DNA of 64,000 nt, taken from assembly GCF_003991155.1 (NCBI RefSeq), contig NZ_CP031293.1; one strand, 5' to 3'. The number at the start of each line of letters is the position of its first letter. The stretch's first letter is position 1. Made by a program: the position numbers and the translations under genes. The DNA is from Escherichia coli. GTDB lineage: Bacteria > Pseudomonadota > Gammaproteobacteria > Enterobacterales > Enterobacteriaceae. Positions 11,497 through 30,965 of the stretch are shown one piece after another. The notes below the pieces were generated by a model, which made no database searches, had not been told where the DNA came from, and saw only the letters and a program-made list of their open reading frames with translations.

Positions 11497-11558
11497 ACAA
11501 TACACATAGGCGATAAGCTTTGTTTTTGTTGCCTTTTTTATTGTTCATTTTTTATAGA

Positions 11559-11578
11559 TACCCCCAAAAGTACCCCCA
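11559..11578. repeat. Arm-type motif TACCCCCAAAAGTACCCCCA near distal att
   Basis: Near-identical copy TACCCCCATAAGTACCCCCA at 30928-30947 near the thrW-proximal att. Confidence 0.4.
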
Positions 11579-12898: not shown

Positions 12899-13195
12899 AC
12901 GTCATACCCTCTGGAAGGATGAAACACGCCCGGATTAAATTTCATTTTTCGCGGGTATAAAAAAACGATGGGGCGGGCAGTCCCGGATAGTCAGGGCTGT
13001 AGAGATTTGACTACCCCCTCCCCACTGGATTCAGGTTACTGCTATTCCGTTAAGCGCTGCTTACGGGGATAGCTGCGTTGTGATTTTGACCATTCAGGTC
13101 GCCGCTATTTCCTCACCGATTGGGTGCTACGCGCGCGCGTACTTGTCCCGAAATACCAGAAACCGCCAGCCAGAGGATGATTTCCCTCTGGTGGT

Positions 13196-13506: not shown

Positions 13507-13636
13507 AAAAGGTGTTGGTTCAGTTGGTTCAGTTGGTTCAATTTGTAAAGATCGTTGTTTTTATTGTGTTTTTTCTGAAATGTTGAACCAACATCAACTC
13601 ATTTTGAACCAACACAGCCCAGCTCTGAACCAACAA
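13507..13636. repeat. Iteron cluster A (GTTGGTTCA / TGAACCAAC repeats), left inverted repeat
   Basis: 13507-13550 is the exact reverse complement of 21756-21799; followed by AT-rich stretch and further TGAACCAAC-like repeats. Confidence 0.65.
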
Positions 13637-13748
13637 CACAGCGATAGCTTTGTGATTGGTCCGTTATTTTCTGGCTGATATTTGAGCGTATAACAGTGTT
13701 ATACAGTGGTATACTGTATGGATATTACTCACTGATATGGTCTTTGCA

Positions 13749-14493: not shown

Positions 14494-15036
14494 ATATCCA
14501 ATGTGTATGCTGTCGATGCTACGCGCGCGTACTTGTCGCAAAATATCAGGCAAAGGCCAGATTCAGAAATTCGTGATAACCACCAGCACAACATGAGAGG
14601 TCATGTAACGCGATTTATCACACCAGATACATGTGATTGGTGTACCCGCATAAAACATCGTCATAGCGCGTCCTGTGCGCATATACGCCGATAATCAACA
14701 CATCACCACCACTCTGTCTCATGTAGAGAACAGTTTTATGGTACTCCCCTCCATCGTGCGCGTACTGGTCGGACGTAGTTGCAAAATTTTTTGCAACTGA
14801 TACCCCTCGCGCGCGTACTGGTCACGAAATTGGTGTTTTGCTGTGGCAGTGATATCAGAAAAATCTTCCTGTTTCACATAAAGCGGATATGCGCGTAATG
14901 TAACGGCCCCATCAACTGGGAGCGGATTTGAGCCCGAATGTGTAGGCAATGTCACTTAACGTTTGTCGCATACCTTCCAGAAAAAGCGATTCATGAATAA
15001 TAGGGGCATGAATGCCCGGCGTACCGGGCTTATTAG

Positions 15037-15885: not shown

Positions 15886-18612
15886 CTATTCCCATTCGCT
15901 AACATCTTTCATGCCACTGAGGGTAGCTACAATCCCGGCCCTTGTCAGTTTCACGAATTCTTCAGCCCCAACGGCATCACGAATTGCTTTCATGGCAATT
16001 TTATTGGCCGAAAATCGTTTCTCTGCTGCGGCGATCGCTGCTGGTGATGCCCCTGCGCGCACTGCTTTTGTAGCTTCCTGAACGGCTTTCTCTATCGCAT
16101 ATCGACCACTTCTTGTCGCCCCAATCTTAGCCACAGCATTTCTTAGCGCGCCACCAGCAACCAAACCACTAATCGAACCAATTACACCACCGCCAAAGCC
16201 TCCAGCGATCGCACCTGACTGTTGAACTCCGTTCATAATCACGCCGACGATCTTTGGAAGGCCTGAATCGAGCGTTTTGAGAGCCTCAGTTGTTCTTCCC
16301 GTGCGCTCTACGTATCGCTGCGGTCTGGTACTGGCTTTAGCGAGTACACCGAACTCTTTCATCATTCTACCGAGATCTGGCGCATGACGACTGATGGCGT
16401 TTACATTCTGCTGGGTCATGAGCTTGGCAAAATACTGGATACCTGACTCTTCACCGATTCCTCCCTTCTCTCCCTGCGCCACAGCATGCTGAAGAATAGA
16501 TGCTATTGCAGGTTGGCGTTCTGCTTCCGGCAGCGCGGAGATAAGACGGTGAAAAGCTCCCGTTCCAGTGTTTGCGGATGCCTTAAGCGTATCGGCACCT
16601 TTTCTTACCATAGCGTCTGATGCGAGATCTCGACCAAAAACAGATTCGGCATTTTGTTTGGCGATAATGTAACTTTTAGAGAGATCGTTAGCTTTCTGCC
16701 ATTCTGTGAGGAAGTTTCCTTTTTCAGCCATGATGCGCATGTCATCAGTGATAGCTCTGCGCATTTCTCCGGCAATCCGGGCGGCATTGGCCTTACCTGC
16801 CCGGGTGTTTGCTTGTTCAGCATCAGCAAACTTAGCACGCCATGCCTTCATCCCGTCGAAGGTTATGCCGCCACCTTGGTTGTTGGCAGCCTGAAACTGT
16901 TTCATCTCCGGGCTGAGTGGAACATTGGCTGCTTTTTCTGCTTGGACGACAGCCATCCCATTACTCATTTTCATCCTTTCGCGTGGCATCGTGCTTCGCA
17001 GTTCTGCCCATGCCATATTCTCTGCTGTTTTCATATCACTGAGGCTCGCGATGATGCGCTCTTTAATTGCTGCGCTTTTTTCTGATGCGCTTCCAGACTC
17101 AGCACCGAAATCAGACAACTGCTTATTCAACTTTGAGGATATTTCATTGAAGGCCGTAAGGTGAGCATCCTGAACATTCCCAGGAGTTGATGCCAGAACA
17201 CCTTCTGCTTGGGCAATTCCACGACTACCTGAGCGCATTCCAGGCGTCAGGGTGTTGATATTAATACCAGTGATTTTCGCCGCCTTAGCGACATCATCTC
17301 TGACGTTTGATGCCTGCGATGCGATATGCTCTCGGCCTACGGCAGAACGCGCTGCTTTCGATACATCATTGGCGGTTTCCAGAGTATTTGCTGCCCCTAA
17401 CACATGGCCTGATTGATTTGTATTACTCCGCAATACATCTCGCATTACGTCACTGGCTGTCTGTCCGCTCTTTATTAAAGCGCGTGCTCCTAGCGATCCT
17501 GCTAGGCCAATACCTGTCTCTTTTGCTAGGTCTTCTGGGCTGATCTGCCCGTTCTTTTGGGCGTTCACCAATGTACCTGGCAGGTTTTCTGCCAACATAC
17601 TAGCCACCTTTGTGGCCGCACGTTCAGCACGTGGAGCGTTGGCAACTGAAGAAGCTGCGGTAGCTGCCTTTCCTGCACCTAATCCTGTAATAAGGTAAGG
17701 TGCTAGCTGCTCACCAGCCTGCGCGTATGGATCTGTAGGTTGGTCTACTGGGCGAAAGACAGGTGATATGGGCGTGTATGTGCCATCACCCACACCAAGC
17801 TTCTGAGCTGCCCATGCTCCGGCTGATTGCGCCGCATTGACTACCCCCACGCCTGCGTCCATTACATCAAACGGTATATTAGCAATCCCTCTGGCCATCT
17901 GCTCTGGCGCAGCTTTCAGTCCTGGCGAAAGATATTCCATCTCAGGATTAAGGTTAGACTTGGCTACTTGCTGCTGCGGTTCCCCGGCATTTTCATCGGC
18001 GAGAAACTGAGCTCTTTTCTGCTCCCATGAACTGGCTGTTGGTAGTCCTGCTTCTATGTTCTTAAATTGCTGACGTTTTGCTTCCCATGCAGAAATATCT
18101 CCCACCTGAGAGATTTCTTTATCAAGCTCTGAGTAGTCAGGCTGCTGAAGATTGCGATGTTGACTGGTTTGTGCAAACTGCAAGATTTCACTGTCATCAG
18201 GGATTATTCCGGCATCTGCAAATTTACTTACGTAATTAGCCGTTTCATCTGGCAGTGTAGATTTACCGTTTCTGACGGCATTAATACGAGCATAGCCAGA
18301 ATTATACCCAGCCAATGCCATACCTATATCACCAAATCGCTTCATTCCTTTATTGAGATGGTTTGCTGCGATATCCATTTGCTTTTCAAATGGCAGTGAG
18401 CGCGGATCTGTTCCACGATAACCAGCATCACTCATTACTGAGGGCATCAGTTGAGCAAATCCTCTAGCTCCTTTCGGTGACTCGGCACTTCCGTTACCAC
18501 TAGATTCATTGCCAACTAATGTTTCCATCGTCCCTGATGGGAAACCATATTTTTCATCGAGATGACGGGAATAGGCTTTCTGTTTTTCTGTCAGTTGTGC
18601 CATCATTGCCAT
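15886..18612 (-). CDS. Large Ala-rich protein with N-terminal lytic transglycosylase (SLT) motif; phage internal virion/ejection protein-like
   Basis: 908 aa; N-terminus contains ESSGNG...GFAQLMPS...AGYNSGYARI (family-1 LT ES / GLMQ / AYNxG motifs); rest is long Ala/Gly-rich. Confidence 0.6.
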   Translation of the reverse strand: MAMMAQLTEKQKAYSRHLDEKYGFPSGTMETLVGNESSGNGSAESPKGARGFAQLMPSVMSDAGYRGTDPRSLPFEKQMDIAANHLNKGMKRFGDIGMALAGYNSGYARINAVRNGKSTLPDETANYVSKFADAGIIPDDSEILQFAQTSQHRNLQQPDYSELDKEISQVGDISAWEAKRQQFKNIEAGLPTASSWEQKRAQFLADENAGEPQQQVAKSNLNPEMEYLSPGLKAAPEQMARGIANIPFDVMDAGVGVVNAAQSAGAWAAQKLGVGDGTYTPISPVFRPVDQPTDPYAQAGEQLAPYLITGLGAGKAATAASSVANAPRAERAATKVASMLAENLPGTLVNAQKNGQISPEDLAKETGIGLAGSLGARALIKSGQTASDVMRDVLRSNTNQSGHVLGAANTLETANDVSKAARSAVGREHIASQASNVRDDVAKAAKITGININTLTPGMRSGSRGIAQAEGVLASTPGNVQDAHLTAFNEISSKLNKQLSDFGAESGSASEKSAAIKERIIASLSDMKTAENMAWAELRSTMPRERMKMSNGMAVVQAEKAANVPLSPEMKQFQAANNQGGGITFDGMKAWRAKFADAEQANTRAGKANAARIAGEMRRAITDDMRIMAEKGNFLTEWQKANDLSKSYIIAKQNAESVFGRDLASDAMVRKGADTLKASANTGTGAFHRLISALPEAERQPAIASILQHAVAQGEKGGIGEESGIQYFAKLMTQQNVNAISRHAPDLGRMMKEFGVLAKASTRPQRYVERTGRTTEALKTLDSGLPKIVGVIMNGVQQSGAIAGGFGGGVIGSISGLVAGGALRNAVAKIGATRSGRYAIEKAVQEATKAVRAGASPAAIAAAEKRFSANKIAMKAIRDAVGAEEFVKLTRAGIVATLSGMKDVSEWE

Positions 18613-19922
18613 CCCTTAAGTTTTGCCTGATAGTAACTTTCCGGCAGATAGCCATGTGCGGTCACATAATCCTTAACCAGTGAAGGATCCTGCAACAGCA
18701 TTTTGGTATCAGTTTCTTCGTCCTTAGATTTGGTTACAGGAATACCGAGCCCGGCAATCTGTCGTTTCTGCATTCGAATAATTACGTCCTGCGCTTTATT
18801 CAACTCTCGCAAAAATGCCTCATTGCTGGTTGCTGACTTAATGCCATTTTGAGATTGCATAAGGGCAGCCCTTTCCCCTTCGGTTGGGTTAGAGCCAAAA
18901 GTCCCTTTGAGGCTAGGCAGAATAACCTTTAGGTTGTATTCATCAGCTTTGGCGCGTAGGCTTCGTGTGTCTTCTGCTACATCAGGAAGGAATCCAAACC
19001 CCAGCGTCAGGGGGTTATAGTTCTGCGAGCGGGTAACGGCCGAAGGATGTTTCCCTACAATTCCCGCCAGTTCATGACCCACTTCAAGCGCAGAGTTCAA
19101 GGAGTCGATGTTACCTACAACAGTATTAATTTTATCGTTCATCTTCTCCACTTTCGCCTGCTGTACCTTGCTCAGTTCAGCATTGAGCTTGTCTCTCTCG
19201 ATGTCATTTTGAGCACGTCCAAGTCGTGCTTTCAGAACCATTTCTCTCGTGCGTAGTTGGTTATCGGATAGGACTTTGAACTGCTCCATATCGAGACGTC
19301 GATTACCCTGTTCCGCATTAACCTGAGCATTATATGCGGATGTATCTGCGTTCTGCTGTGCAATGCTCTGCCCTTGCTGCTTCTCTTGAACACTAAAGTA
19401 ACTATTTGGATCAGCATGGAGGTGGATGAGGTCAGTGATTCTGTTGAATTCCTGTGGGTCATTCTGCCAAGACTGATAAACCTCTTCAGCAGGAAGACCA
19501 AATCGCTGTAATACTGGATTTGCCTGCTGAATGGCCTTCTGCATGGTCAGTGGATCTCCAGTTTGTGACGCAAGACGCAGATTCATGGCAGCGTCAGCGG
19601 TCTGTCGATTTTGCTCAGCATCAATGAATCCCATCTGTTTTTGAGAATCAGCCATAAACTGGGGATACTGGGCCATTAACTTCTGCACGCCAACACGATC
19701 ATTATTAGCTACCGCACTACCCAACCGTGCCTGATATTCTTTTAACTGCTGGGAAATTTGCGCCTGCTGATTAATCTCAGCAACGCCTCTTAGCCCCTGT
19801 AGCGCCATTAAACCTACGTTTGGCTGCTGCTGATACTGCACAGGCTGAGGAACGGAAGAACGAGGAGCATTATCATTTTGCGGTGCCATGCTAGGCAGCC
19901 CGCCAAGTTGCCATGTCGCCAT
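18603..19922 (-). CDS. Gln-rich coiled-coil protein, ejection-protein-like
   Basis: 439 aa; overlaps downstream gene start (operon). Confidence 0.45.
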   Translation of the reverse strand: MATWQLGGLPSMAPQNDNAPRSSVPQPVQYQQQPNVGLMALQGLRGVAEINQQAQISQQLKEYQARLGSAVANNDRVGVQKLMAQYPQFMADSQKQMGFIDAEQNRQTADAAMNLRLASQTGDPLTMQKAIQQANPVLQRFGLPAEEVYQSWQNDPQEFNRITDLIHLHADPNSYFSVQEKQQGQSIAQQNADTSAYNAQVNAEQGNRRLDMEQFKVLSDNQLRTREMVLKARLGRAQNDIERDKLNAELSKVQQAKVEKMNDKINTVVGNIDSLNSALEVGHELAGIVGKHPSAVTRSQNYNPLTLGFGFLPDVAEDTRSLRAKADEYNLKVILPSLKGTFGSNPTEGERAALMQSQNGIKSATSNEAFLRELNKAQDVIIRMQKRQIAGLGIPVTKSKDEETDTKMLLQDPSLVKDYVTAHGYLPESYYQAKLKGWQ

Positions 19923-20599
19923 TAGAATCCAAGCCCCCCAACAAGACCAATAAGCCCACCACCAATAGCGCCGGCCGCAGTTCCTATTCCAGGAACAACG
20001 GAACCAAGTTGCGCACCCGCTAAAGCGCCTGATGCTGCCCCACCAATACCACGCGCAAGACTGGATGGCTGCTGCGCCTGACCTGCACGAATAGCGCCAA
20101 GCCCCTGCAAGAGTTGTCCGGTATTATTGGCGTAGTTTTGCCCTGCCGTTGCCTGCCCTGATGCCGCATTCATCCCGACATTTAGCAGGTTTCCATAATT
20201 TTGCATTTGCCCACTAAGCCAATTGTTATAAAGCATGGGCGCAATGGAAGATAACTGGTTACTGGTAGCTGTTGAGCCAAGCCCCCCGGTAGCTTCTGCT
20301 GAGACAAGGTTCTGATAACGGGCCTGATCTGCCTGTGTTTTATATAAACCAGAACCAAAGAAATCATTCGCGGCTTTATTCTGCCCTTCCAGAGTCATCA
20401 GTCCTTGCAGTTGTTGTAAAGCAGGCAATCCGACTTCTGCATACGGCTTGAGATTATTCATCACCGTATTCCACTGCTCGCGCTGCAAATCAATTGCCTG
20501 CTGCTGGGCCTTCGCCTGAGCTTTAGAGGCACCACCATCACCGCCTTTTTCGTATACGGCACGATTGAGATGTTTATGAGCTATATGGGTAATTAACAT
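19922..20599 (-). CDS. Gly/Ala-rich protein with hydrophobic C-terminus, ejection-protein-like
   Basis: 225 aa; C-terminal GxxxG-rich hydrophobic segment; contiguous with neighbours. Confidence 0.45.
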   Translation of the reverse strand: MLITHIAHKHLNRAVYEKGGDGGASKAQAKAQQQAIDLQREQWNTVMNNLKPYAEVGLPALQQLQGLMTLEGQNKAANDFFGSGLYKTQADQARYQNLVSAEATGGLGSTATSNQLSSIAPMLYNNWLSGQMQNYGNLLNVGMNAASGQATAGQNYANNTGQLLQGLGAIRAGQAQQPSSLARGIGGAASGALAGAQLGSVVPGIGTAAGAIGGGLIGLVGGLGF

Positions 20600-21054
20600 T
20601 CGCTGAATTCCTTATATTGTTGCCGAGTTAACTGATAAAGCGTTACGCCGACGGGTTTACCACATCTGATATAAGCATCATCAAGGTGACCAACACGGGT
20701 AGCGCCAAGCAAACGGATAATTGCCCGTCCATATTTTGTGGTGTCAGGAACCATAGTGATGCTGTTAAGGAATGGTGAGTTTTCGAGAAGCCATTTGCAG
20801 AATAATCGATGCCCTTGCAGTGCATATTCACCACGGAATCCGGGGTCGTACACCGCATGGCATTCAACAACGCTATGCCAGAAGTTACGCACTTCATGAA
20901 CGCCAGCCAGCACTAATCCTTCGTAGATGCCGAGATATACCGCATCAGGCTTGATGTAGTACGTGTGCCCCGGCTCAACAATATTTTCGGTATTGCCTGG
21001 CTCGTTAAGAAAGGCCTGTAATCGCACAGGGTTATCAATAAATTTTAGTTCCAT
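20593..21054 (-). CDS. Hypothetical protein (153 aa), first large gene of the module
   Basis: ORF-track; overlaps next gene start. Confidence 0.4.
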   Translation of the reverse strand: MELKFIDNPVRLQAFLNEPGNTENIVEPGHTYYIKPDAVYLGIYEGLVLAGVHEVRNFWHSVVECHAVYDPGFRGEYALQGHRLFCKWLLENSPFLNSITMVPDTTKYGRAIIRLLGATRVGHLDDAYIRCGKPVGVTLYQLTRQQYKEFSEC

Positions 21055-21070
21055 GCGATGCCATCCATTT

Positions 21071-21232
21071 TCACATACAGCCTGCCAGCGCCTTATCTAT
21101 TAACCCTCGTGCAATTTCATGCAGAGTTGGCGCTACTCCAATTCCTGATTTTTTACGCTGCTCTTCCTGAATTTTCTTTATCGCTTCCATTTGCTTCTCA
21201 CTTATCAATACCGGCTTTACTGAAATAGCCAT
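21071..21232 (-). CDS. Small RHH-like protein (about 53 aa)
   Basis: Internal start MAISVKPVLISEKQMEAIKKIQEE... within the 96-aa track ORF; beta-strand plus two helices pattern. Confidence 0.3.
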   Translation of the reverse strand: MAISVKPVLISEKQMEAIKKIQEEQRKKSGIGVAPTLHEIARGLIDKALAGCM

Positions 21233-21685
21233 AACGCCCCCCTTAGAACTGTATAAAACAACAGTTATTATAGTTTCACAAATCGCAATATTCATCATCG
21301 TAATTGCAAAATATGAAACAAATAGCACAAAAAAATGCCACCGCTCAGTAGCTGGTGGCATCGTTCTGTGTGTCAGGTTTTGACAGGTTTTTTATGGACT
21401 CTAAAAACTATATTTATGGTATCGCATTACTCTTCACGGCAGGTGCTTTTCAGTTCTGCCCTTGCTTCTGGCTCCATTGGTAATTTGATTCGCGATCAGC
21501 TATGCGGATGGTTTGCTGAACAGGCATAACAACTTCTCAGAGGCTGTTTTTTGAACTACGAAAATTTCGTAGTGCTCACTTTCAAAAACGTCACGCCCTT
21601 GTACACAGGATTTTACGAAAGTCTCGTAAAACACTCTCTGATGCCAGCCAGGTGTTGTGCGCATCAATTCAGTCACATTGTGTCG

Positions 21686-21799
21686 GTTCAAAATACCGTG
21701 TTGTTGGTTCAGTGTTGGTTCAATAAAAAGAATAAAATCCTTATAAAACAATACACTTTACAAATTGAACCAACTGAACCAACTGAACCAACACCTTTT
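21686..21799. repeat. Iteron cluster B (TGAACCAAC repeats), right inverted repeat
   Basis: Three tandem 9-mers at 21762-21793; degenerate copies at 21686-21722; immediately 3' of the primase gene. Confidence 0.65.
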
Positions 21800-21817
21800 C
21801 TACGCACATGAAGAAGC

Positions 21818-24577
21818 TCATTCTTCAGATGAGTTATAATCTCCTGGCTGGTAATTGAGTACATAAACGTTTATTTGTCGTCCCTGAATACGTGGTGATT
21901 TTCTTTGGTATCCACGACCGCTGTTTGGTGGGGTTAGCATCCCGGCTTTTTTCAACACTTCAGCAAACTGTTTTGCGTTGAAACCACATGCGATCTCCTT
22001 TTCAAATGTGGCCGGGAATGTGTAGAAAATCATTGGGCTTTCGTCATGTTCTCCACGCTGACGGTATCCGGCTAAATCTTTGATGGGCAAATCTGCCGGG
22101 CTGTATGGAAATGGTGCAAAACGGCTAAGCCCATAGGCATTAAGAAATGCCTCCGTTTGTTCAATAATCTGCTGATGCTCTTTGTTACCTGTGCCGAACT
22201 CGCGCAACCATGCGTTATAGCTGTGCTGTATCGCATCACGGCATGTCTGAGCATCCCAGCCTGTTACAACCTCGCCTAACAACAATGCGGCCTCCAGAAT
22301 GGCAAATCGCGCGGCTACACGGTGAACCTGCTCACCATAATCGGATGGGATCAGGCTTCTCCATCTGCTTTCGCAATCACGAACGGTTTTAATAGCCTGT
22401 TGCTGGTGGTGTGCCAGCCATTTAATCCACTCACGCCCGGACGCGCCGTGGTGATGCTGGTAAGCGTCTTTCAGTGCGTCTGCGTGCTGTTTTCCGTTCT
22501 GGTAATCGTGAAAGCGTACTGCTTTACTCAACGGAATATTCAGCAGTCGCACCAGTTGCCCGGCTTTGGTTTTTCGCCCGGAAGTAGCGATAAATGTTTC
22601 TAAATCCATTTCTCCGGTGCTGATTGCCACTGTACGCCAGCGTTTTAGATCCCGGTTTCCACCATCTTTAGCGCCTTGCAGTTTCCCTACACCGTTAAAT
22701 AACGCATAGGCAGACTGTGAAACGCTGACAGGATCAGCGCCCTGACCAACTTCATCAAGCGGCATTAGTCCGTCATTGTGGGCGGCGGCCTCATTTGCCA
22801 GCCCCAGCGCGGTTCCGTACCACGTCAGCCGCAGTAAATCAGGGTTGCCGTATAAGCTGCTCGCCACGTTTGCCGTGGTGGTCTTACCTGCGCTCGACTG
22901 CTCATAGAAATGAATGCCGAACCCGTCAGCGCCCACCAGCCCAATCAATGGCGCTGCCAGTGCTGCGCCGATCCCGGTCATCATTGAATAGTTACCAAAG
23001 GCCAGACGCGCCACGTTATCACGCCAGCTTTTCGCGCTCCCTGAGACGGTATATCCGGCTGCGGCTGAGCTTCTCCCGCTGAACAGCACAGGATTTTCAG
23101 GTGTTCCGATGATTTCCCCATCAGGCATGATGTACGCTCCGCATTGCCAGCCAGTGGCATGAGCAACACGCCACAATTCACGAGAGCCACTGCGTTGTAG
23201 CCAGTCTGCCAGTATTGCTCTGAGGCTGCTTTTGGTCGTGACATTTACCCCACCAGCTTTAAGTGTGCGCCATCCTTCACGTTCACCAATATCAGCCAGT
23301 GGAATGGCAGCGGTTGTCGGCGTTTCAGAACCAAACGACAGCCAGCGAAGAATGAGATACTGGTCTTTATCGTCTCTGCCAGTACCGATAACGCTTAACG
23401 GAGAACATAACCAGCTTTCGTTATTGATGATTTCTCCACTCTGGCTGTCAGCTCTCGGAGATACCCAATAAATACCATCCTCGCGGCTTTCTATTCTTGG
23501 TTTCAGTGGGTCGGTATCCATAACCTTAAAATCGCTTCCCTCAATGGTCTGTGGCTCCTGTTTCACGCCATTACCCTGTGGTTGGTACATTGACTTATTG
23601 AACGCTTCTGTGGCGCATTTAATGCCGTGTTTTTGGTGGTAATCATTCCAGTCTGCTTTGTGATCTGTCGGGGGTAATGCCACCCATCCAGAAACAGATA
23701 AAGCTGCTTTTTCTGCTGCTATTCTCCCCGTGTTTTGTCTTCCTTCGCTGTGGTCGTTATCCGCAGCAATGATGATTTGTGCTGAAGGAAATTTATCCCG
23801 CAGTACCTGGGCGACATATAACAGGTTCCCGGCATCAATCGCCGCCACTGTCAGCGCCTCTGGACGAATTAAATGGGCAGATAATGCCGTTGCCAGACCT
23901 TCTGCGATTAAGATGCTCTGTGTTGTTTCTGGTGCGTTTATGGCGTGATATGCCCCCCGCTTTGCTGAACCTGTCAGGAGTCTTTTTTCACCATGTGAGG
24001 TAATAGTCTGTGCTGCTGTGACTGCGCCGGATTTATCCACCAGCGCCAGCAACAGAGATCCATCGGGCAACACGGGGAATGTAAAATCACCTACCCCTTT
24101 CGCAACCAGATAATCAGATTTGCCGTTTACAGCCTTTCTGCGCATGTCATCAAACTGACGGGAAAACGTATCCCGTCTTTGTTGTTCGTCCTTCTCTGCC
24201 CTTTTCAGGCGCTCCTGTTCGCGTCGCTGGCGCTCGGTTTCCAGTTGTTCCCGTTTCTGGCTGGTGGCTTCTGGTGTTTCCGTTGTCCGGTAATCAATAC
24301 CCAGAACATCAGCGGCAAGAAGCGCCGCCTCTGTTGTGTCGCAGTTATTTACGCGTTTAATTAAATCCAGCCCATCACCAGCGCCGCACTGATTACAGAT
24401 GAAGCTACCGCGCCCGTTGTCATCGAACCGGAATCGATCTTTGCCCCCACATGCAGGGCAGGGAGCATGACGGCGCGGAGAGTCAGGGACATTTATGTTC
24501 AGGCAGCCCAGCACATGAGGCCAGTTGTTTTCAGACGCACTGATAACCTGACGGATAAGATCAATGTTTCGCATCAC
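21818..24577 (-). CDS. P4 alpha-like primase-helicase (zinc finger + toprim + P-loop NTPase)
   Basis: 919 aa; CPACGG..CNQCG zinc-binding motif, toprim-like IIIAADNDH, Walker A SSAGKTTT and Walker B LMPLDEV. Confidence 0.8.
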   Translation of the reverse strand: MMRNIDLIRQVISASENNWPHVLGCLNINVPDSPRRHAPCPACGGKDRFRFDDNGRGSFICNQCGAGDGLDLIKRVNNCDTTEAALLAADVLGIDYRTTETPEATSQKREQLETERQRREQERLKRAEKDEQQRRDTFSRQFDDMRRKAVNGKSDYLVAKGVGDFTFPVLPDGSLLLALVDKSGAVTAAQTITSHGEKRLLTGSAKRGAYHAINAPETTQSILIAEGLATALSAHLIRPEALTVAAIDAGNLLYVAQVLRDKFPSAQIIIAADNDHSEGRQNTGRIAAEKAALSVSGWVALPPTDHKADWNDYHQKHGIKCATEAFNKSMYQPQGNGVKQEPQTIEGSDFKVMDTDPLKPRIESREDGIYWVSPRADSQSGEIINNESWLCSPLSVIGTGRDDKDQYLILRWLSFGSETPTTAAIPLADIGEREGWRTLKAGGVNVTTKSSLRAILADWLQRSGSRELWRVAHATGWQCGAYIMPDGEIIGTPENPVLFSGRSSAAAGYTVSGSAKSWRDNVARLAFGNYSMMTGIGAALAAPLIGLVGADGFGIHFYEQSSAGKTTTANVASSLYGNPDLLRLTWYGTALGLANEAAAHNDGLMPLDEVGQGADPVSVSQSAYALFNGVGKLQGAKDGGNRDLKRWRTVAISTGEMDLETFIATSGRKTKAGQLVRLLNIPLSKAVRFHDYQNGKQHADALKDAYQHHHGASGREWIKWLAHHQQQAIKTVRDCESRWRSLIPSDYGEQVHRVAARFAILEAALLLGEVVTGWDAQTCRDAIQHSYNAWLREFGTGNKEHQQIIEQTEAFLNAYGLSRFAPFPYSPADLPIKDLAGYRQRGEHDESPMIFYTFPATFEKEIACGFNAKQFAEVLKKAGMLTPPNSGRGYQRKSPRIQGRQINVYVLNYQPGDYNSSEE

Positions 24578-24932
24578 CGTACCCCACGTGGTCTATAGCG
24601 TTTGCGATATGGCTAACCAGCATCTGCCACTTGGTTATTCCGTAATCAGTCAGCATGCCATCATTGTTTAGCCACATATCAAATTCAGCGGTTGTCGCAA
24701 GTTTCCACTTATCGCCGTGGACAGTCCTCATTGCTGGGTACATGAATGCGCAAATCAGATCACAAACATCTGACGGCTTCAGAGATGTAGTAATGGTGCG
24801 TCCCTCTGGCGTCTGAATTGCCATTTTCTCTTCACCAGTAGAATGAAGGTTATGAATCCACACAGCACCAGCAATCTTTGCCACCTGCTCTCCGATTGCG
24901 GAGCTAAGCGCCATTTCTGCATTTTCACGCAT
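24561..24932 (-). CDS. Hypothetical protein (123 aa)
   Basis: ORF-track; overlapping stops/starts with neighbours. Confidence 0.35.
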   Translation of the reverse strand: MRENAEMALSSAIGEQVAKIAGAVWIHNLHSTGEEKMAIQTPEGRTITTSLKPSDVCDLICAFMYPAMRTVHGDKWKLATTAEFDMWLNNDGMLTDYGITKWQMLVSHIANAIDHVGYGDAKH

Positions 24933-25266
24933 GAGAACCTCCCGCTACAGTTGCGCCCATGTCATTAACCATGCTTTGCCATATCTCACGCCCGACGTCA
25001 GTCAATCCGTCCTTAGTGACGCAACGTTCAAGAAGCTCGATCCCCACGGTTTCCCACTGCGGGTAGAACACTTTCATGGCTGCCAGTGTGTAGCTATCGA
25101 TCAGGCTGCGAACGCCTTTTACTCCATTGACGATTTCCACACGGACGGCCTCGCCGTCCGCATCAACCATGAAATAGTCCCCGCCGCTGGTGGAGGTAAT
25201 GTGGTTATACAGTGCCGACGCATACTTATTTGCCAGCGCATTCAGTCGGAAATTTTTAGTAATCAT
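24925..25266 (-). CDS. Hypothetical protein (113 aa)
   Basis: ORF-track. Confidence 0.35.
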   Translation of the reverse strand: MITKNFRLNALANKYASALYNHITSTSGGDYFMVDADGEAVRVEIVNGVKGVRSLIDSYTLAAMKVFYPQWETVGIELLERCVTKDGLTDVGREIWQSMVNDMGATVAGGSHA

Positions 25267-25276
25267 GGCTCCATCC

Positions 25277-25879
25277 TCAGTGCGTCACTGGTTCCGCTGG
25301 CATGCCGTTTTCATTCAGTTCAGCTATAAAGCTGTTGTGAAGTTCAGCAAGCGTTTCACGCCCAAATGGAGTCAGTGCTCCTTGTTCCACATCCATCATG
25401 GCTCTGTAGAAAATAATGGCGCGTTCTGTGCCAGACTCGATGCCAAAACGTTCTATCATCGCGCCCTCAATGTTGTTTGCCATAGCGAGGCGCTCTGCTA
25501 CTGGATACAGCGGCATGGCGACGATGCCGTTGGAATAAACAGCCACTTCGGAAGGATTGCCAGTATCATCAATGATGCTGACAGTGCCGTTTTCCTCTCT
25601 CATTTCCAGCATGAATACTGTTGCGATCAGCCATCTCCACATAATGACGTTATGCTGTGATGTGTAATCGAAATATCCCTGGTTACCGCCATCGGCAATA
25701 GCGAGATGTATTGACATACCTTCATCTGGTTTATCGTCATAATCCCCGGCATCCAGACGATTTACGGCATCAATATATGAGATGGCCTCAACGCGTTCTG
25801 TCATGCCATCGTTGCTGCGGTACATGATGTTTACGCCGTCAGGCGTTGCTTCTGCATGGAAAGTTAAGAAATTATTCAT
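25277..25879 (-). CDS. Hypothetical protein (about 200 aa)
   Basis: ORF-track frame 25277..25984; likely start at internal Met (MNNFLTFHAE...). Confidence 0.35.
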   Translation of the reverse strand: MNNFLTFHAEATPDGVNIMYRSNDGMTERVEAISYIDAVNRLDAGDYDDKPDEGMSIHLAIADGGNQGYFDYTSQHNVIMWRWLIATVFMLEMREENGTVSIIDDTGNPSEVAVYSNGIVAMPLYPVAERLAMANNIEGAMIERFGIESGTERAIIFYRAMMDVEQGALTPFGRETLAELHNSFIAELNENGMPAEPVTH

Positions 25880-26093
25880 GTTTCGCCTCGCCTGAATGAT
25901 TCTGTAACTCATATTTGCCCAACAATTCGTCCGCTTCCTGAATAGCTTCTGGTACGCCATTGAGCAGTGACATAACCGCGCCAATCATTAACTTGTCTCT
26001 GTTGCTGGGGCTGGCCCCTTCAAGCCAGAACCCTAAAACAGTCTGAACCTGTTCGATGCGACATTGCGCTTCAATGAGCTGGATGTTGGTCAT
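25872..26093 (-). CDS. Hypothetical small protein (73 aa)
   Basis: ORF-track; 4-nt overlap with upstream gene. Confidence 0.3.
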   Translation of the reverse strand: MTNIQLIEAQCRIEQVQTVLGFWLEGASPSNRDKLMIGAVMSLLNGVPEAIQEADELLGKYELQNHSGEAKHE

Positions 26094-26353
26094 TTCGCAC
26101 TCTCCACATCGATTAAACCGATATCTATCAGGGAGGTAACTTTTTGTAGCCAGCTATTGATTACTGTCGCCTGTTCCCCTCCCACCGAGGGAACAATCTC
26201 ATTCATCACATGAACCAGACCTGTGCGCGCTCTGGTAAGCCGTTCAGTCGCGCAATCTGCGGGAGTGAATGTGTCTGGATATGGCTCTTCACGCCCCAGC
26301 AATGATTCAATTTCCAGCTCACACGGATGACGATAAATTAAGTTGATATTCAT
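26090..26353 (-). CDS. Hypothetical small protein (87 aa)
   Basis: ORF-track; ATGA-type overlaps. Confidence 0.3.
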   Translation of the reverse strand: MNINLIYRHPCELEIESLLGREEPYPDTFTPADCATERLTRARTGLVHVMNEIVPSVGGEQATVINSWLQKVTSLIDIGLIDVESAK

Positions 26354-26544
26354 TTTTCACCCCCAAGAATTACCAGCTCGGCACGGGCATCGTTAACCAA
26401 AGATGAGCACGCTTTAATCGCATCCACGACATCAGCAGCGTCCATTTCTTCAGCCGAAAGACTGACAGCAACCAGGACAGCCGCTGCTTGCTCGATTAAT
26501 TGAAGTGCGGACGTAAGTCGAGGGGCATTAATTGAGTTATTCAT
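26350..26544 (-). CDS. Hypothetical small protein (about 64 aa)
   Basis: Internal start [10 protein letters not shown]... in track ORF 26350..26601. Confidence 0.3.
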   Translation of the reverse strand: MNNSINAPRLTSALQLIEQAAAVLVAVSLSAEEMDAADVVDAIKACSSLVNDARAELVILGGEK

Positions 26545-27604
26545 TGGTTGCCCCCGTTTTTCCTGGCATTTCGCCACCTTCCAGCAGGAAATGAACGTCA
26601 CGAACGGCGAGATCCAATATCGCGAGTAACGCCTTCAGTCTTTCGTCTCGTGAGGGAGAGTTGCTCACCAGAATGTCGTTAATCACTTCTGTCAGTGTGA
26701 TGATCTGGCTTGTGCGTTCGAGGGGATCCATATGCACATCGTAGGTTTTAATCATGAGCCACCTCCATGCGGATACGACCAGCAAAAAAGCAGACGTGAT
26801 CGCGCACCAGAGAACGGCGAGCATCGCGTTCAGACTCGGCAGCAATATGATGAATTTTGGCGGTAATTGTCGAGCAATCGCGGCGAACTGCGGCGATAAT
26901 CCAGATAAATTGCGGTTTTTGGGTAGGGGTAGTAGCCAGCATGTGGCAGCCTCCATTCGATAGCATGTAACGCTACCACCGGAAACGCCAATTTCGCTGG
27001 TGGTAGCCCAGACAGGGTTGGCGTAACCGGCTCGAATGGATACCGGCGCTTCCGAAGAAGCCCCTGCCTGAGCCACCATTGATTGACAAAGGCGCTGGAT
27101 TATACACCAACGCCCAAAAAATGGGTGAGTCAGACCTACGACATAAAAAAAGACGCTCGGCGCGTCATATGTCGCCATTCGATTTACTAGGACGCCAATC
27201 CCGGCACCCGTTTTATGAGGTGCCTTATAACCATAAACCGTGTTGCCGCATAACGGCAAGCTCTTTTTTATGGACTCCGAAAACTCGCTATTGGAAGCAC
27301 CAGATGCACAGTACATCGCGCTCATTTCGTTAACGTCACGCGCGTGGACGAATGTTTTTGTGGAGTCACTACACGAGCGGAAGACATCATCTACGACCAG
27401 AAATTTTCTGGCGCAGCCGCTGACCTTCTCAATGCTAATATCATCGCCCGAGATTTCTGATATGGTTAAGGCATCCGTTCCGACCACCAGCAAATGATAA
27501 ACTTTGCTTGTATCTGCTGTATTAATGCCTGACTTTGCCGTCATATTGCTGGATTTTGGCGACATACCAGCCAGTGAAAATGTCTTCTTCTGGACGGTTA
27601 GCAT
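26537..27604 (-). CDS. Long open frame of uncertain gene structure (possibly a 72-aa gene 26537..26755 plus upstream gene)
   Basis: 355 codons without stop; composition atypical in middle part; start overlaps stop of upstream gene. Confidence 0.25.
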
Positions 27605-27780
27605 TTGTTAACCTCCGCGAACTCCTTCATGAAACGCGCCAGCGGTTGTACGCATGGCGATTGATACCCGTCGCGATAAAACGTCACTCGGTTGTGAGAC
27701 ACGCTTTCGACAGTAACGAGTGCTCCGTGGGCATCTTTGTAGCGTTTTTGTGGTTGTGGTGTTCCTGTTGGCTTAGACAT
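27598..27780 (-). CDS. Hypothetical small protein (about 60 aa)
   Basis: Internal start MSKPTGTPQPQKRYKD... with GGAGGTG Shine-Dalgarno upstream. Confidence 0.3.
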   Translation of the reverse strand: MSKPTGTPQPQKRYKDAHGALVTVESVSHNRVTFYRDGYQSPCVQPLARFMKEFAEVNKC

Positions 27781-28606
27781 TGACCACCTCCAGACGCTTG
27801 GCGAGCCAGCGTTGCGACAGGCGGGTGAGTTCTCCTTTGCGCTGCTCATATTCCATGCCCATATCAATTAACGTGATATTGGTGCTTTCGAGATATGAGA
27901 GGTGCTCAAGCTGTTCTGCGTTCATATGGTCGCGAGGTTCGCCAGAATAGCCATTTATCCGCGCCCACTGCTTAGCAGTTAGCCCACCAAGAACGATACG
28001 AGAAATCATATTGCTCTCGTTTGTGTAGTGGTGTTGCTGCGTCGTTTTACCCATCTCGGCACGGGCCATATTCAGCGCATCGCACATTGGCTTAAAGTTG
28101 TTTGCGGCACTGAGACGGGCTTTTAGCTGGCGACGATAGCGGGCGGCGATTTCAGGCACGCTACGCTGTAATTCTTCCTCGCACTGGATGAAATAACGGC
28201 GGATAGCGCGACCCTGATCATTGCGTTCGATCATTGCCAGTTCTTTCGCCATTCCGACACTTAACAGATAGTCTTTGCCGGGTCTGCCAGAGTGCTTTAT
28301 CTTGCTGTAAGCCGCGCCATTCGGGCTTTTCCCCAAATTTGGGGAAATTGTTTTATGGACTGAGTAATCGTGCCCAATGGTGAAGTCATATTCAGAGATG
28401 CGATCAGTGATCCATGTAGAGAAGTCTTTTCCCACGCCCAACGCTTTGTGTAACGCTTTTGCGCTAACAATATTGGTTTCACGCCCACCGATATGACCAG
28501 GAATAACCGGGACAATTGCGGCAAATTCATTACCGTTAATTGTGCTCAGAGAGGCGTTCAGATGAGGGGCGGCCTCAGAAATTAATCTGCTTTTTTCGAT
28601 GTTCAT
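27773..28606 (-). CDS. Phage antirepressor-like protein (AntA/KilAC-type)
   Basis: 277 aa; N-terminus ..INGNEFAAIVPV.. and ..DYLLSVGMAKELAMIERNDQGRAIRRYFIQCEEE.. resemble antirepressor domains. Confidence 0.5.
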   Translation of the reverse strand: MNIEKSRLISEAAPHLNASLSTINGNEFAAIVPVIPGHIGGRETNIVSAKALHKALGVGKDFSTWITDRISEYDFTIGHDYSVHKTISPNLGKSPNGAAYSKIKHSGRPGKDYLLSVGMAKELAMIERNDQGRAIRRYFIQCEEELQRSVPEIAARYRRQLKARLSAANNFKPMCDALNMARAEMGKTTQQHHYTNESNMISRIVLGGLTAKQWARINGYSGEPRDHMNAEQLEHLSYLESTNITLIDMGMEYEQRKGELTRLSQRWLAKRLEVVNV

Positions 28607-29253: not shown

Positions 29254-29680
29254 TTATTAATATCCTGTACTAATGACGCAATAACCCCCTCCTGCAACGA
29301 ATGGCGAGAGTTTTATTTGCGTCAAATGTCGAATACGCCAAAGACCACAATATGAAAAACATATTGCGGTCTTTTATAAAAGATAGTCAGATTGTTTTGG
29401 TTTGTTTGCTCCACAAGGGTAGAGCTACCCTGCATTTCGGCAGGATCACGCTATTAGGCGTGACATCCAGTAGTTTTAAAGAACAATTGCGCTTTGTCAG
29501 CGCCAAAGCCTGTTAAAGAACATTCCGCTTTTCAGCAGCGTAGAAGGCTCAATACACCTTCGTTTATAAAAGAGCGATTGCCCTTCTCCAGGGCTAACTG
29601 TTAAATAGCAATCCTCTGTGAGTTTTTATCAATCTACTCCCCTATACTTTAGTAAACCTCTGTATACTTGTCCAGTTGTT

Positions 29681-30895: not shown

Positions 30896-30965
30896 TTGGG
30901 GGTACCTCCACTAAACCGAACAGCAAATACCCCCATAAGTACCCCCATCTGACCGTAGATTTTGA

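Follow-up and report, generated by a model that had tools for sequence, protein, structure and literature searches.

The window analysed here, a 64,000-nucleotide (nt) stretch of Escherichia coli contig NZ_CP031293.1, carries a phage satellite of the P4 or phage-inducible chromosomal island (PICI) type at tRNA-Thr, beside proA. Within this island a short DNA element, which we call motif A, occurs in two strong copies, and its sequence is that of a segment of phage small-terminase genes. The window is 100% identical to E. coli STEC383, and the PGAP annotation of that identical locus, Rfam, Pfam and iterons all agree in assigning the island to the Gram-negative PICI or P4-like satellites. Its minus strand encodes, in order, int, alpA, a 143-amino-acid (aa) protein, antA/B, DUF4222 and an 'ash' pseudogene, followed by an icd-like gene, small genes, a TOPRIM/DUF927 primase, an RHH gene and homologues of P22 genes 14, 7, 20 and 16. 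This layout matches the four-zone plan of Gram-negative PICIs (PMC10111431), with an integration zone (int and alpA), a Bro zone containing the C4 and isrK RNAs, a zone of primase and origin, and a zone of captured late genes. No terminase gene was found in the annotated stretch (about window positions 9000-43000), and no capsid genes were found in the island examined.

The first copy of motif A, site 1 (21388-21409, minus strand; core TTTTTAGAGTCCATAAAA at 21390-21407), is intergenic, with the primase and iteron origin block on one side and, on the other, the intrinsic terminator that closes the primase operon on the minus strand (21337-21352, 36 nt downstream of site 1). The iteron block (TGAACCAAC units, 21690-21800) stands beside the primase gene and is the likely origin of replication. 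Site 2 (27263-27286) reads GAGTTTTCGGAGTCCATAAAAAAG on the minus strand, contains the exact core TTTTCGGAGTCCATAAAA at 27266-27283 and lies 41 nt upstream of the 5′ end of an isrK-like RNA, a relative of P4 seqA (27146-27223, minus strand; Rfam RF01394, 60.5 bits). Also on the minus strand, at 26996-27083, is a C4/CI-type immunity antisense RNA (Rfam RF01695, 79.5 bits) that matches P4 cI.

A sequence-only reading of the window had described the motif at three sites and proposed that it binds an island regulator or forms part of antisense terminators. Two of the three copies hold up. The exact 14-mer TTTTTTATGGACTC is present at 21388-21401, as described, and at 27264-27277, one position away from the 27265-27278 given there; such a repeat is by itself unremarkable, because the window contains 19 exact 14-mer direct repeats against 8.6 +/- 2.6 in shuffles. 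The match between sites 1 and 2 extends to 20 of 22 positions (TTTTTTATGGACTCYRAAAACT; 21388-21409 and 27264-27285), and direct pairs matching at 20/22 or better number five in the whole window and none in four Markov resamples; nor did 20/22 pairs arise in 40 shuffles of the 11-kb module. The remaining four pairs are real repeats, comprising a tRNA duplicate, the island-end repeats and two pairs of an Sf6-type motif described below. The third site is a weak copy on the plus strand (28349-28362) that matches at 12 of 14 positions, with its exact part, TTTTATGGACT, at 28351-28361 where the reading had put it; about 0.56 matches to the 14-mer with at most two mismatches are expected by chance. 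It lies inside the antA/B coding sequence (CDS) in a different frame, read as ...SVHKT..., violates two near-invariant positions of the conserved core defined below, and is probably a chance similarity within coding sequence. The window holds no further copies, and none of the three lies near the int-alpA region. In P4, the targets of Vis are at P_LE, P_LL and att; the lack of any copy near int-alpA speaks against the placement expected of an AlpA/Vis-type target.

On the minus strand, site 2 is identical at 24 of 24 positions to codons 48-55 of the small-terminase gene (terS) of the P22-like phage CUS-3. By tblastn, this TerS family comprises the P22-like coliphage CUS-3 and many phages of Vibrio, Acinetobacter, Riemerella, Lactococcus and others, and, away from any satellite, phages from several phyla have motif A in their terS genes. 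Degenerate peptide patterns drew 80 terS genes from IMG/VR, of which we kept 35-40 below 75-85% nucleotide identity, with a median amino-acid identity of 51%. In this reduced set, third-position conservation at codons 49 and 51-54 reaches 0.83-1.00, against a gene mean of 0.46-0.47 (s.d. 0.16). The Ser52 codon is TCC in 27 of 27 genes, compared with 15% of the serine codons elsewhere in them, and the Ile53 codon is ATA in 18 of 20, compared with 20% elsewhere in the same genes. The best six-codon window begins at codon 49 and was equalled in 17 of 20,000 permutations. Codons 49-54 of terS are constrained as DNA beyond the demands of the protein. The constrained core, TTT NNN GAGTCC NTAAAA, is near-palindromic (TTTTCGGA G TCCATAAA). 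Of 79 terS loci, 71 contain it exactly once, and the 40-kb CUS-3 genome holds a single core, allowing up to two mismatches. Sites 1 and 2 agree at all constrained core positions and differ only at the unconstrained middle codon (NNN). We infer that the constrained terS segment is the pac site of the CUS-3-type terminase family.

As proposed here, motif A resembles P22 pac in being a short recognition site for headful packaging that is embedded in terS and unique in the phage genome. It differs in belonging to another terS family (CUS-3 type), in having a near-palindromic core where the P22 site is asymmetric, and in that its pac role is putative. CUS-3-type TerS and P22 gp3 show no detectable homology (hhalign 0.2%, BLASTP E = 35); the analogy with P22 pac is therefore one of position within the terS gene, not of descent. 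The occurrence of the same sequence in the terS genes of phages from several phyla, under constraint at the DNA level, argues against the proposal that it is a site for an island regulator (AlpA, the antirepressor or the RHH protein), as do the absence of the motif from P4's equivalent promoter and the finding that nothing connects it to any island protein. A programmed −1 frameshift site (A AAA AAG) in terS was also considered and rejected, codon 55 being the least conserved part of the motif. Two terS-like open reading frames (ORFs) come from unexpected metagenome-assembled genome (MAG) bins: the protein of L010, a Collinsella-binned contig, is identical to CUS-3 TerS, and that of L023, from a Bacillota bin, matches it over the stretch shown save for one residue. 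Both are probably coliphage contamination of the bins.

We scanned 100,044 species genomes (one genome per species) for TTTTTTATGGACTCNNAAAAC and found at least 50 loci, where about two are expected for its 19 specified bases. At ten loci the reverse strand reads a ...W K x x x... peptide inside a small-terminase gene. The remaining loci are non-coding and include satellites of seven enterobacterial genera (Morganella, Providencia, Proteus, Raoultella, Kluyvera, Buttiauxella and Escherichia), in which motif A stands 41-170 nt upstream of isrK and C4 in constant orientation. It is often tandem, with three copies in Morganella spaced 33 and 36 nt apart, and it is kept across the seven genera while the surrounding leader diverges. 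Other satellites also carry, together with motif A, the second element that we call motif B (below), and those of Buttiauxella and Kluyvera contain perfect fits to the P22 pseudo-pac pattern (PMC11226127), co-oriented with motif A. The suggestion in the sequence-only reading that the motif is a conserved, functional-looking cis element is thus borne out by its presence in related islands of seven genera and by its excess over genomic background. Tandem copies or variants outside terS were also seen on Clostridia MAG contigs (L008, L017, L035, L038 and L043), in Wohlfahrtiimonas (L039) and in Chromobacterium (L020), which suggests that similar elements exist well beyond Enterobacterales. A literature search for the motif string found nothing relevant.

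Comparison among relatives also bears on the idea that the T-run of the motif and the hairpins preceding it are plus-strand antisense terminators, or that the ATG of the motif starts a small plus-strand peptide. The hairpin reported before site 2, TTGCCGCATAACGGCAA, is present at 27243-27259, and so is the palindrome CCCCAAATTTGGGG at 28331-28344, which lies inside a 20-nt perfect palindrome (28328-28347); a terminator scan flags 27243-27259 and 28328-28347, each followed by a T-run. At site 1, the ATG opens a 29-codon hydrophobic frame (MDSKNY..., 21394-21483) within a 42-aa ORF with a GTG start (21355-21483). Against the terminator version, however, the flanking hairpins vary among relatives, are absent in several and show no covariation, and the stem at site 1 has only 5 bp. 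The peptide version was rejected: neither ATG is preceded by a Shine–Dalgarno sequence, neither frame keeps its length or its sequence from one site to the other or from genus to genus, and the motif has no Pfam match. We regard this account, in either form, as very improbable. Nor does the motif coincide with a known RNA family, since Rfam gives only isrK, C4 and a tRNA nearby. The idea that an RNA of the motif pairs with isrK or the C4 loop was likewise discarded: inspection by eye gave only 5-bp or A/U-run matches, and an RNA of the near-palindrome would leave a 1-nt loop.

Site 2 lies next to a putative sigma-70 promoter for isrK/CI, predicted on the minus strand at 27230-27259 (−35 TTGCCG at 27259-27254, −10 TATGGT at 27235-27230), with the A-run of the motif placed at about -46..-41. 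It would be the analogue of P4 P_LE, and P4 has CTTGCC...TATAGT at the equivalent place. The P4 immunity leader (P_LE, seqA and CI RNA) resembles that of the island, in which site 2 lies just upstream of the isrK/seqA-like and C4/CI RNAs and the −35 and −10 elements are similar; unlike the island, P4, a satellite packaged through cos, has no motif upstream of P_LE. Motif A might then be a UP element or a regulator operator of this constitutive promoter, its likeness to terS being secondary. In the window and in five independent leader variants, picked without reference to the motif, the core occupies the same place, -60..-43 counted from the isrK 5′ end; relatives keep the −35 and −10 and differ in the spacer; the near-palindromic core resembles an operator; and elements without the motif still have an A-run beside the −35 (CTTGCC). 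Measured from the same 5′ end, the A-run of site 2, AAAAAAGAG, spans about -46..-38 and agrees with the proximal UP-subsite consensus, AAAAAARNR. Moreover, isrK in Salmonella has its own promoter (PMC4825925). As an account of motif A as a whole, we nevertheless consider a promoter element unlikely. Site 1 has no promoter and is followed by a terminator, in Providencia, Proteus, Buttiauxella and Morganella the motif stands 68-170 nt away from isrK, and P4 P_LE does without the motif. A promoter function also leaves unexplained both the synonymous-site freeze in the terS genes of unrelated phages and the Sf6-type and P22-type terS pieces that travel with the motif. At site 2 itself a promoter role is plausible, because of the fixed position of the core, the UP-like A-run and the retention of an A-run in motif-free elements, and it is compatible with a pac site.

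The first of these other terS pieces is a plus-strand fragment of 107 nt at 27350-27456, 65 nt from site 2, which corresponds to positions 268-374 of gene 3 in P22/IME10-type phages and has 86-92% nucleotide identity to terS of Bas106, IME10 and P22. In a sister strain, PGAP calls this stretch a 'DNA-packaging protein' fragment (pseudogene), a label that appears to mark a cis element and not a real protein. The homology opens at gene position 268, the first base of the annotated 22-bp P22 pac (feature taken from AF527608, P22-pbi, where it is annotated at 4-25). This pac, GAAGATTTATCTGAAGTCGTTA, lies within gene 3/terS (PMC11226127, PMC8022706, PMC9611059), and the island carries a diverged copy of it, the pac-aligned 22-mer GAATGTTTTTGTGGAGTCACTA at 27350-27371, with the following 85 nt of the gene. 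Descent from an experimentally defined pac site was found for this fragment only, and not for motif A. A possible second P22-pac-like site at 21606-21627 fits merely 13 of 17 positions of the degenerate pattern and was not counted.

Motif B, the 18-mer TTT NNN GACAAGTACGCG, is the homologous segment of Sf6-type terS; the island has three copies and shuffles have none. The copies are identical at 17-18 of 18 positions to codons 56-61 of Sf6 terS (gene 1) and lie at 13136-13153 (TTTCGGGACAAGTACGCG; 17/18 to Sf6 gene 1), at 14526-14543 (TTTTGCGACAAGTACGCG) and at 14812-14829. The last belongs to a minus-strand cluster (14812-14867) in which a P22-pac-like 17-mer, AAGATTTTTCTGATATC (14851-14867), comes first and motif B second, the same order as in the leaders of L044 and L045. 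All three copies are non-coding and belong to the minus strand of the late zone. A blastn search with motif B against the phage collection gave nothing significant, the match being too short, and the motif was found by direct comparison with Sf6. By hhalign, CUS-3-type TerS and Sf6 TerS (gp1) are homologous (95.8% probability), and Sf6 F56-A61 falls exactly on CUS-3 F49-K54, such that motif A is the CUS-3-type counterpart and not the Sf6 sequence itself. Two sequences from the same position of homologous genes were therefore captured as isolated short elements, and in both the second codon alone varies, in phage genes and in non-coding satellite copies alike. In Sf6, pac reportedly falls in the stretch of gene 1 coding for the DNA-binding domain; motif B corresponds to that same stretch, in keeping with pac mimicry. 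Scans for P22-type and Sf6-type terS gave only relatives at 90% identity or more, so that the comparison of synonymous sites in Sf6-type genes is a weak check.

Such pieces could also be non-functional scars of recombination between island and helper phage, kept by chance. This family of islands is highly mosaic, late genes of helper phages are a known acquisition of PICIs (PMC10111431), and the 107-nt P22-type piece is, by its PGAP annotation, a pseudogene fragment. Site 1 itself belongs to a 245-bp mosaic module (21391-21635) that is present or missing as one unit among relatives: homology to HeN100 (L002) stops at about 21390 and homology to ETEC1721 (L003) at about 21635. This module holds another phage-gene fragment, in that 21484-21585 has 76% identity to an uncharacterised gene ('hypothetical protein') of Klebsiella phage phiKp_30 and, within this stretch, 21547-21585 matches phage antirepressor genes; a 35-nt stretch of the module (21580-21614) is also 71% identical to 27325-27359. 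We nonetheless find chance retention improbable. The same single 18-24-nt position of terS has been retained repeatedly, from three terS types, and the sequence on either side of the copies has no relation to terS. The positions at which the copies never differ are exactly those under constraint in the phage genes, and the positions at which they vary are exactly those left free there. All copies share one orientation, and the motif persists over seven genera despite the divergence of the leader.

On balance, we lean towards the view that the copies of motif A imitate pac sites and are used by helper terminases in packaging the island. Several points weigh against pac mimicry. The packaging role of the motif is argued from sequence comparison throughout, and CUS-3-type TerS has no detectable homology to P22 gp3, the protein with the experimentally defined pac site; the gp3 genes retrieved were near-identical and so gave no synonymous-site control at P22 pac. 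The P22-type copy in the window fits the published pseudo-pac pattern (PMC11226127), scored over 17 positions, at 15 of 17 (16 of 17 in sister islands), and the P22-type fragment is oriented opposite to the other motifs. The fixed position of the core and the A-run kept by motif-free elements fit a promoter element too. Finally, the site 1 module also holds an unrelated phage-gene fragment, so it could simply be recombination debris. If the copies do act as pac sites, the CUS-3-type TerS of a P22-like helper would bind motif A at 27263-27286, at 21388-21409, or at both; the helper large terminase would cut near the bound copy, and headful packaging of replicated island DNA would begin from that cut. 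The A-run of site 2 might double as a UP-like element of the isrK promoter. TerS binding, terminase cleavage and a role in island transfer are predicted steps.

By extension, the P22/IME10-type fragment (27350-27456) and the Sf6-type 18-mers (at 13136, 14526 and 14812) may serve helpers with the other two TerS specificities. The island would then carry a 'master-key' set of minimal pac sites for the P22, Sf6 and CUS-3 TerS classes and could be packaged by any such helper, a proposal that we make tentatively, as possible and not as probable. Satellites that rely on a cis copy of a helper packaging site offer the closest parallels. P4 carries the cos site of P2. EcCICFT073 and 11capE carry helper cos sites (PMC10111431), and the Vibrio PLE is described (bioRxiv 10.1101/2024.04.22.590561) as having an ICP1-like pac site. 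The present island differs from these in that its signals are minimal excerpts from inside terS, 18-24 nt long (107 nt in one case), in several copies and from three TerS types, and in where they lie, namely the immunity leader, the late zone and a place downstream of the origin. That a satellite bears the packaging signal of its helper is a known strategy, of which pac mimicry here would be a new form. Satellites that pirate cos sites are known; to our knowledge, pac mimicry of multiple specificities has not been described for satellites, and we know of no such arrangement of minimal terS pieces of several types in Gram-negative PICIs or P4-like elements.

How TerS proteins recognize DNA is still poorly understood (PMC9611059). 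If the master-key proposal is correct, the satellite copies would define the previously unmapped pac sites of the large Sf6/CUS-3 TerS superfamily as a unit of 18 bp, TTT NNN plus 12 specific bases, at a fixed position in the region encoding the DNA-binding domain, and the copy that abuts the immunity promoter could couple binding of helper TerS to derepression of the satellite. Pac mimicry, if true, would account for the mobilization of a common class of E. coli chromosomal islands by headful (pac-type) P22-like phages. It would also supply an 18-bp candidate pac, accessible to direct tests, for a TerS family that is very large and spread across several phyla.

The annotation of the immunity leader may also call for revision. 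The Pfam Phage_ASH domain of the 355-aa 'ash' ORF (26909-27604, minus strand) coincides exactly with the isrK and C4/CI RNA genes, and the first 123 codons of the ORF are antisense to the terS fragment. The ORF is very probably not a protein, because the Phage_ASH match covers exactly the two RNA genes, and the 'ash family protein' annotation, perhaps the Pfam family too, looks like a translated RNA locus. A protein-level cause of motif A, through a repeated EFxESIKK in the 'Ash' protein, was rejected on the same ground. As a peptide reading it fails also in that the N-terminal part of the ORF is antisense to the terS fragment and the motifs lie in differing frames and orientations.

Other features of the island deserve mention. 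Besides the RHH protein, the late zone (18603-21232) encodes homologues of gp14, gp7, gp20 and gp16, which in P22 are head-completion and ejection proteins; the gp16-like gene has 68-70% nucleotide identity to its CUS-3 counterpart, and ejection genes are unusual cargo for a satellite. A second, inverted copy of the iteron block lies 8.2 kb away at 13507-13640 (44 nt exact), and the two copies flank the captured P22-like late genes; this pairing could recall the ori/crr pair of P4 or be a trace of the insertion of the late zone. In the region 29254-29680 of the window, the Rfam int-alpA RNA (RF02996) had no match at E <= 1; it was matched between int and alpA in several related islands. The perfect palindrome in the antA/B CDS (28328-28347), TTTCCCCAAATTTGGGGAAA, is kept in sister islands, and about 0.06 palindromes of this length are expected per window. 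Near the island ends, a direct repeat matching at 21 of 22 positions, ATACCCCCAWAAGTACCCCCAT, is found at 11556-11577 and 30925-30946, one copy lying just upstream of int; these repeats may be arm-type sites of the integrase, and the island would then span roughly 11.5-31.1 kb.

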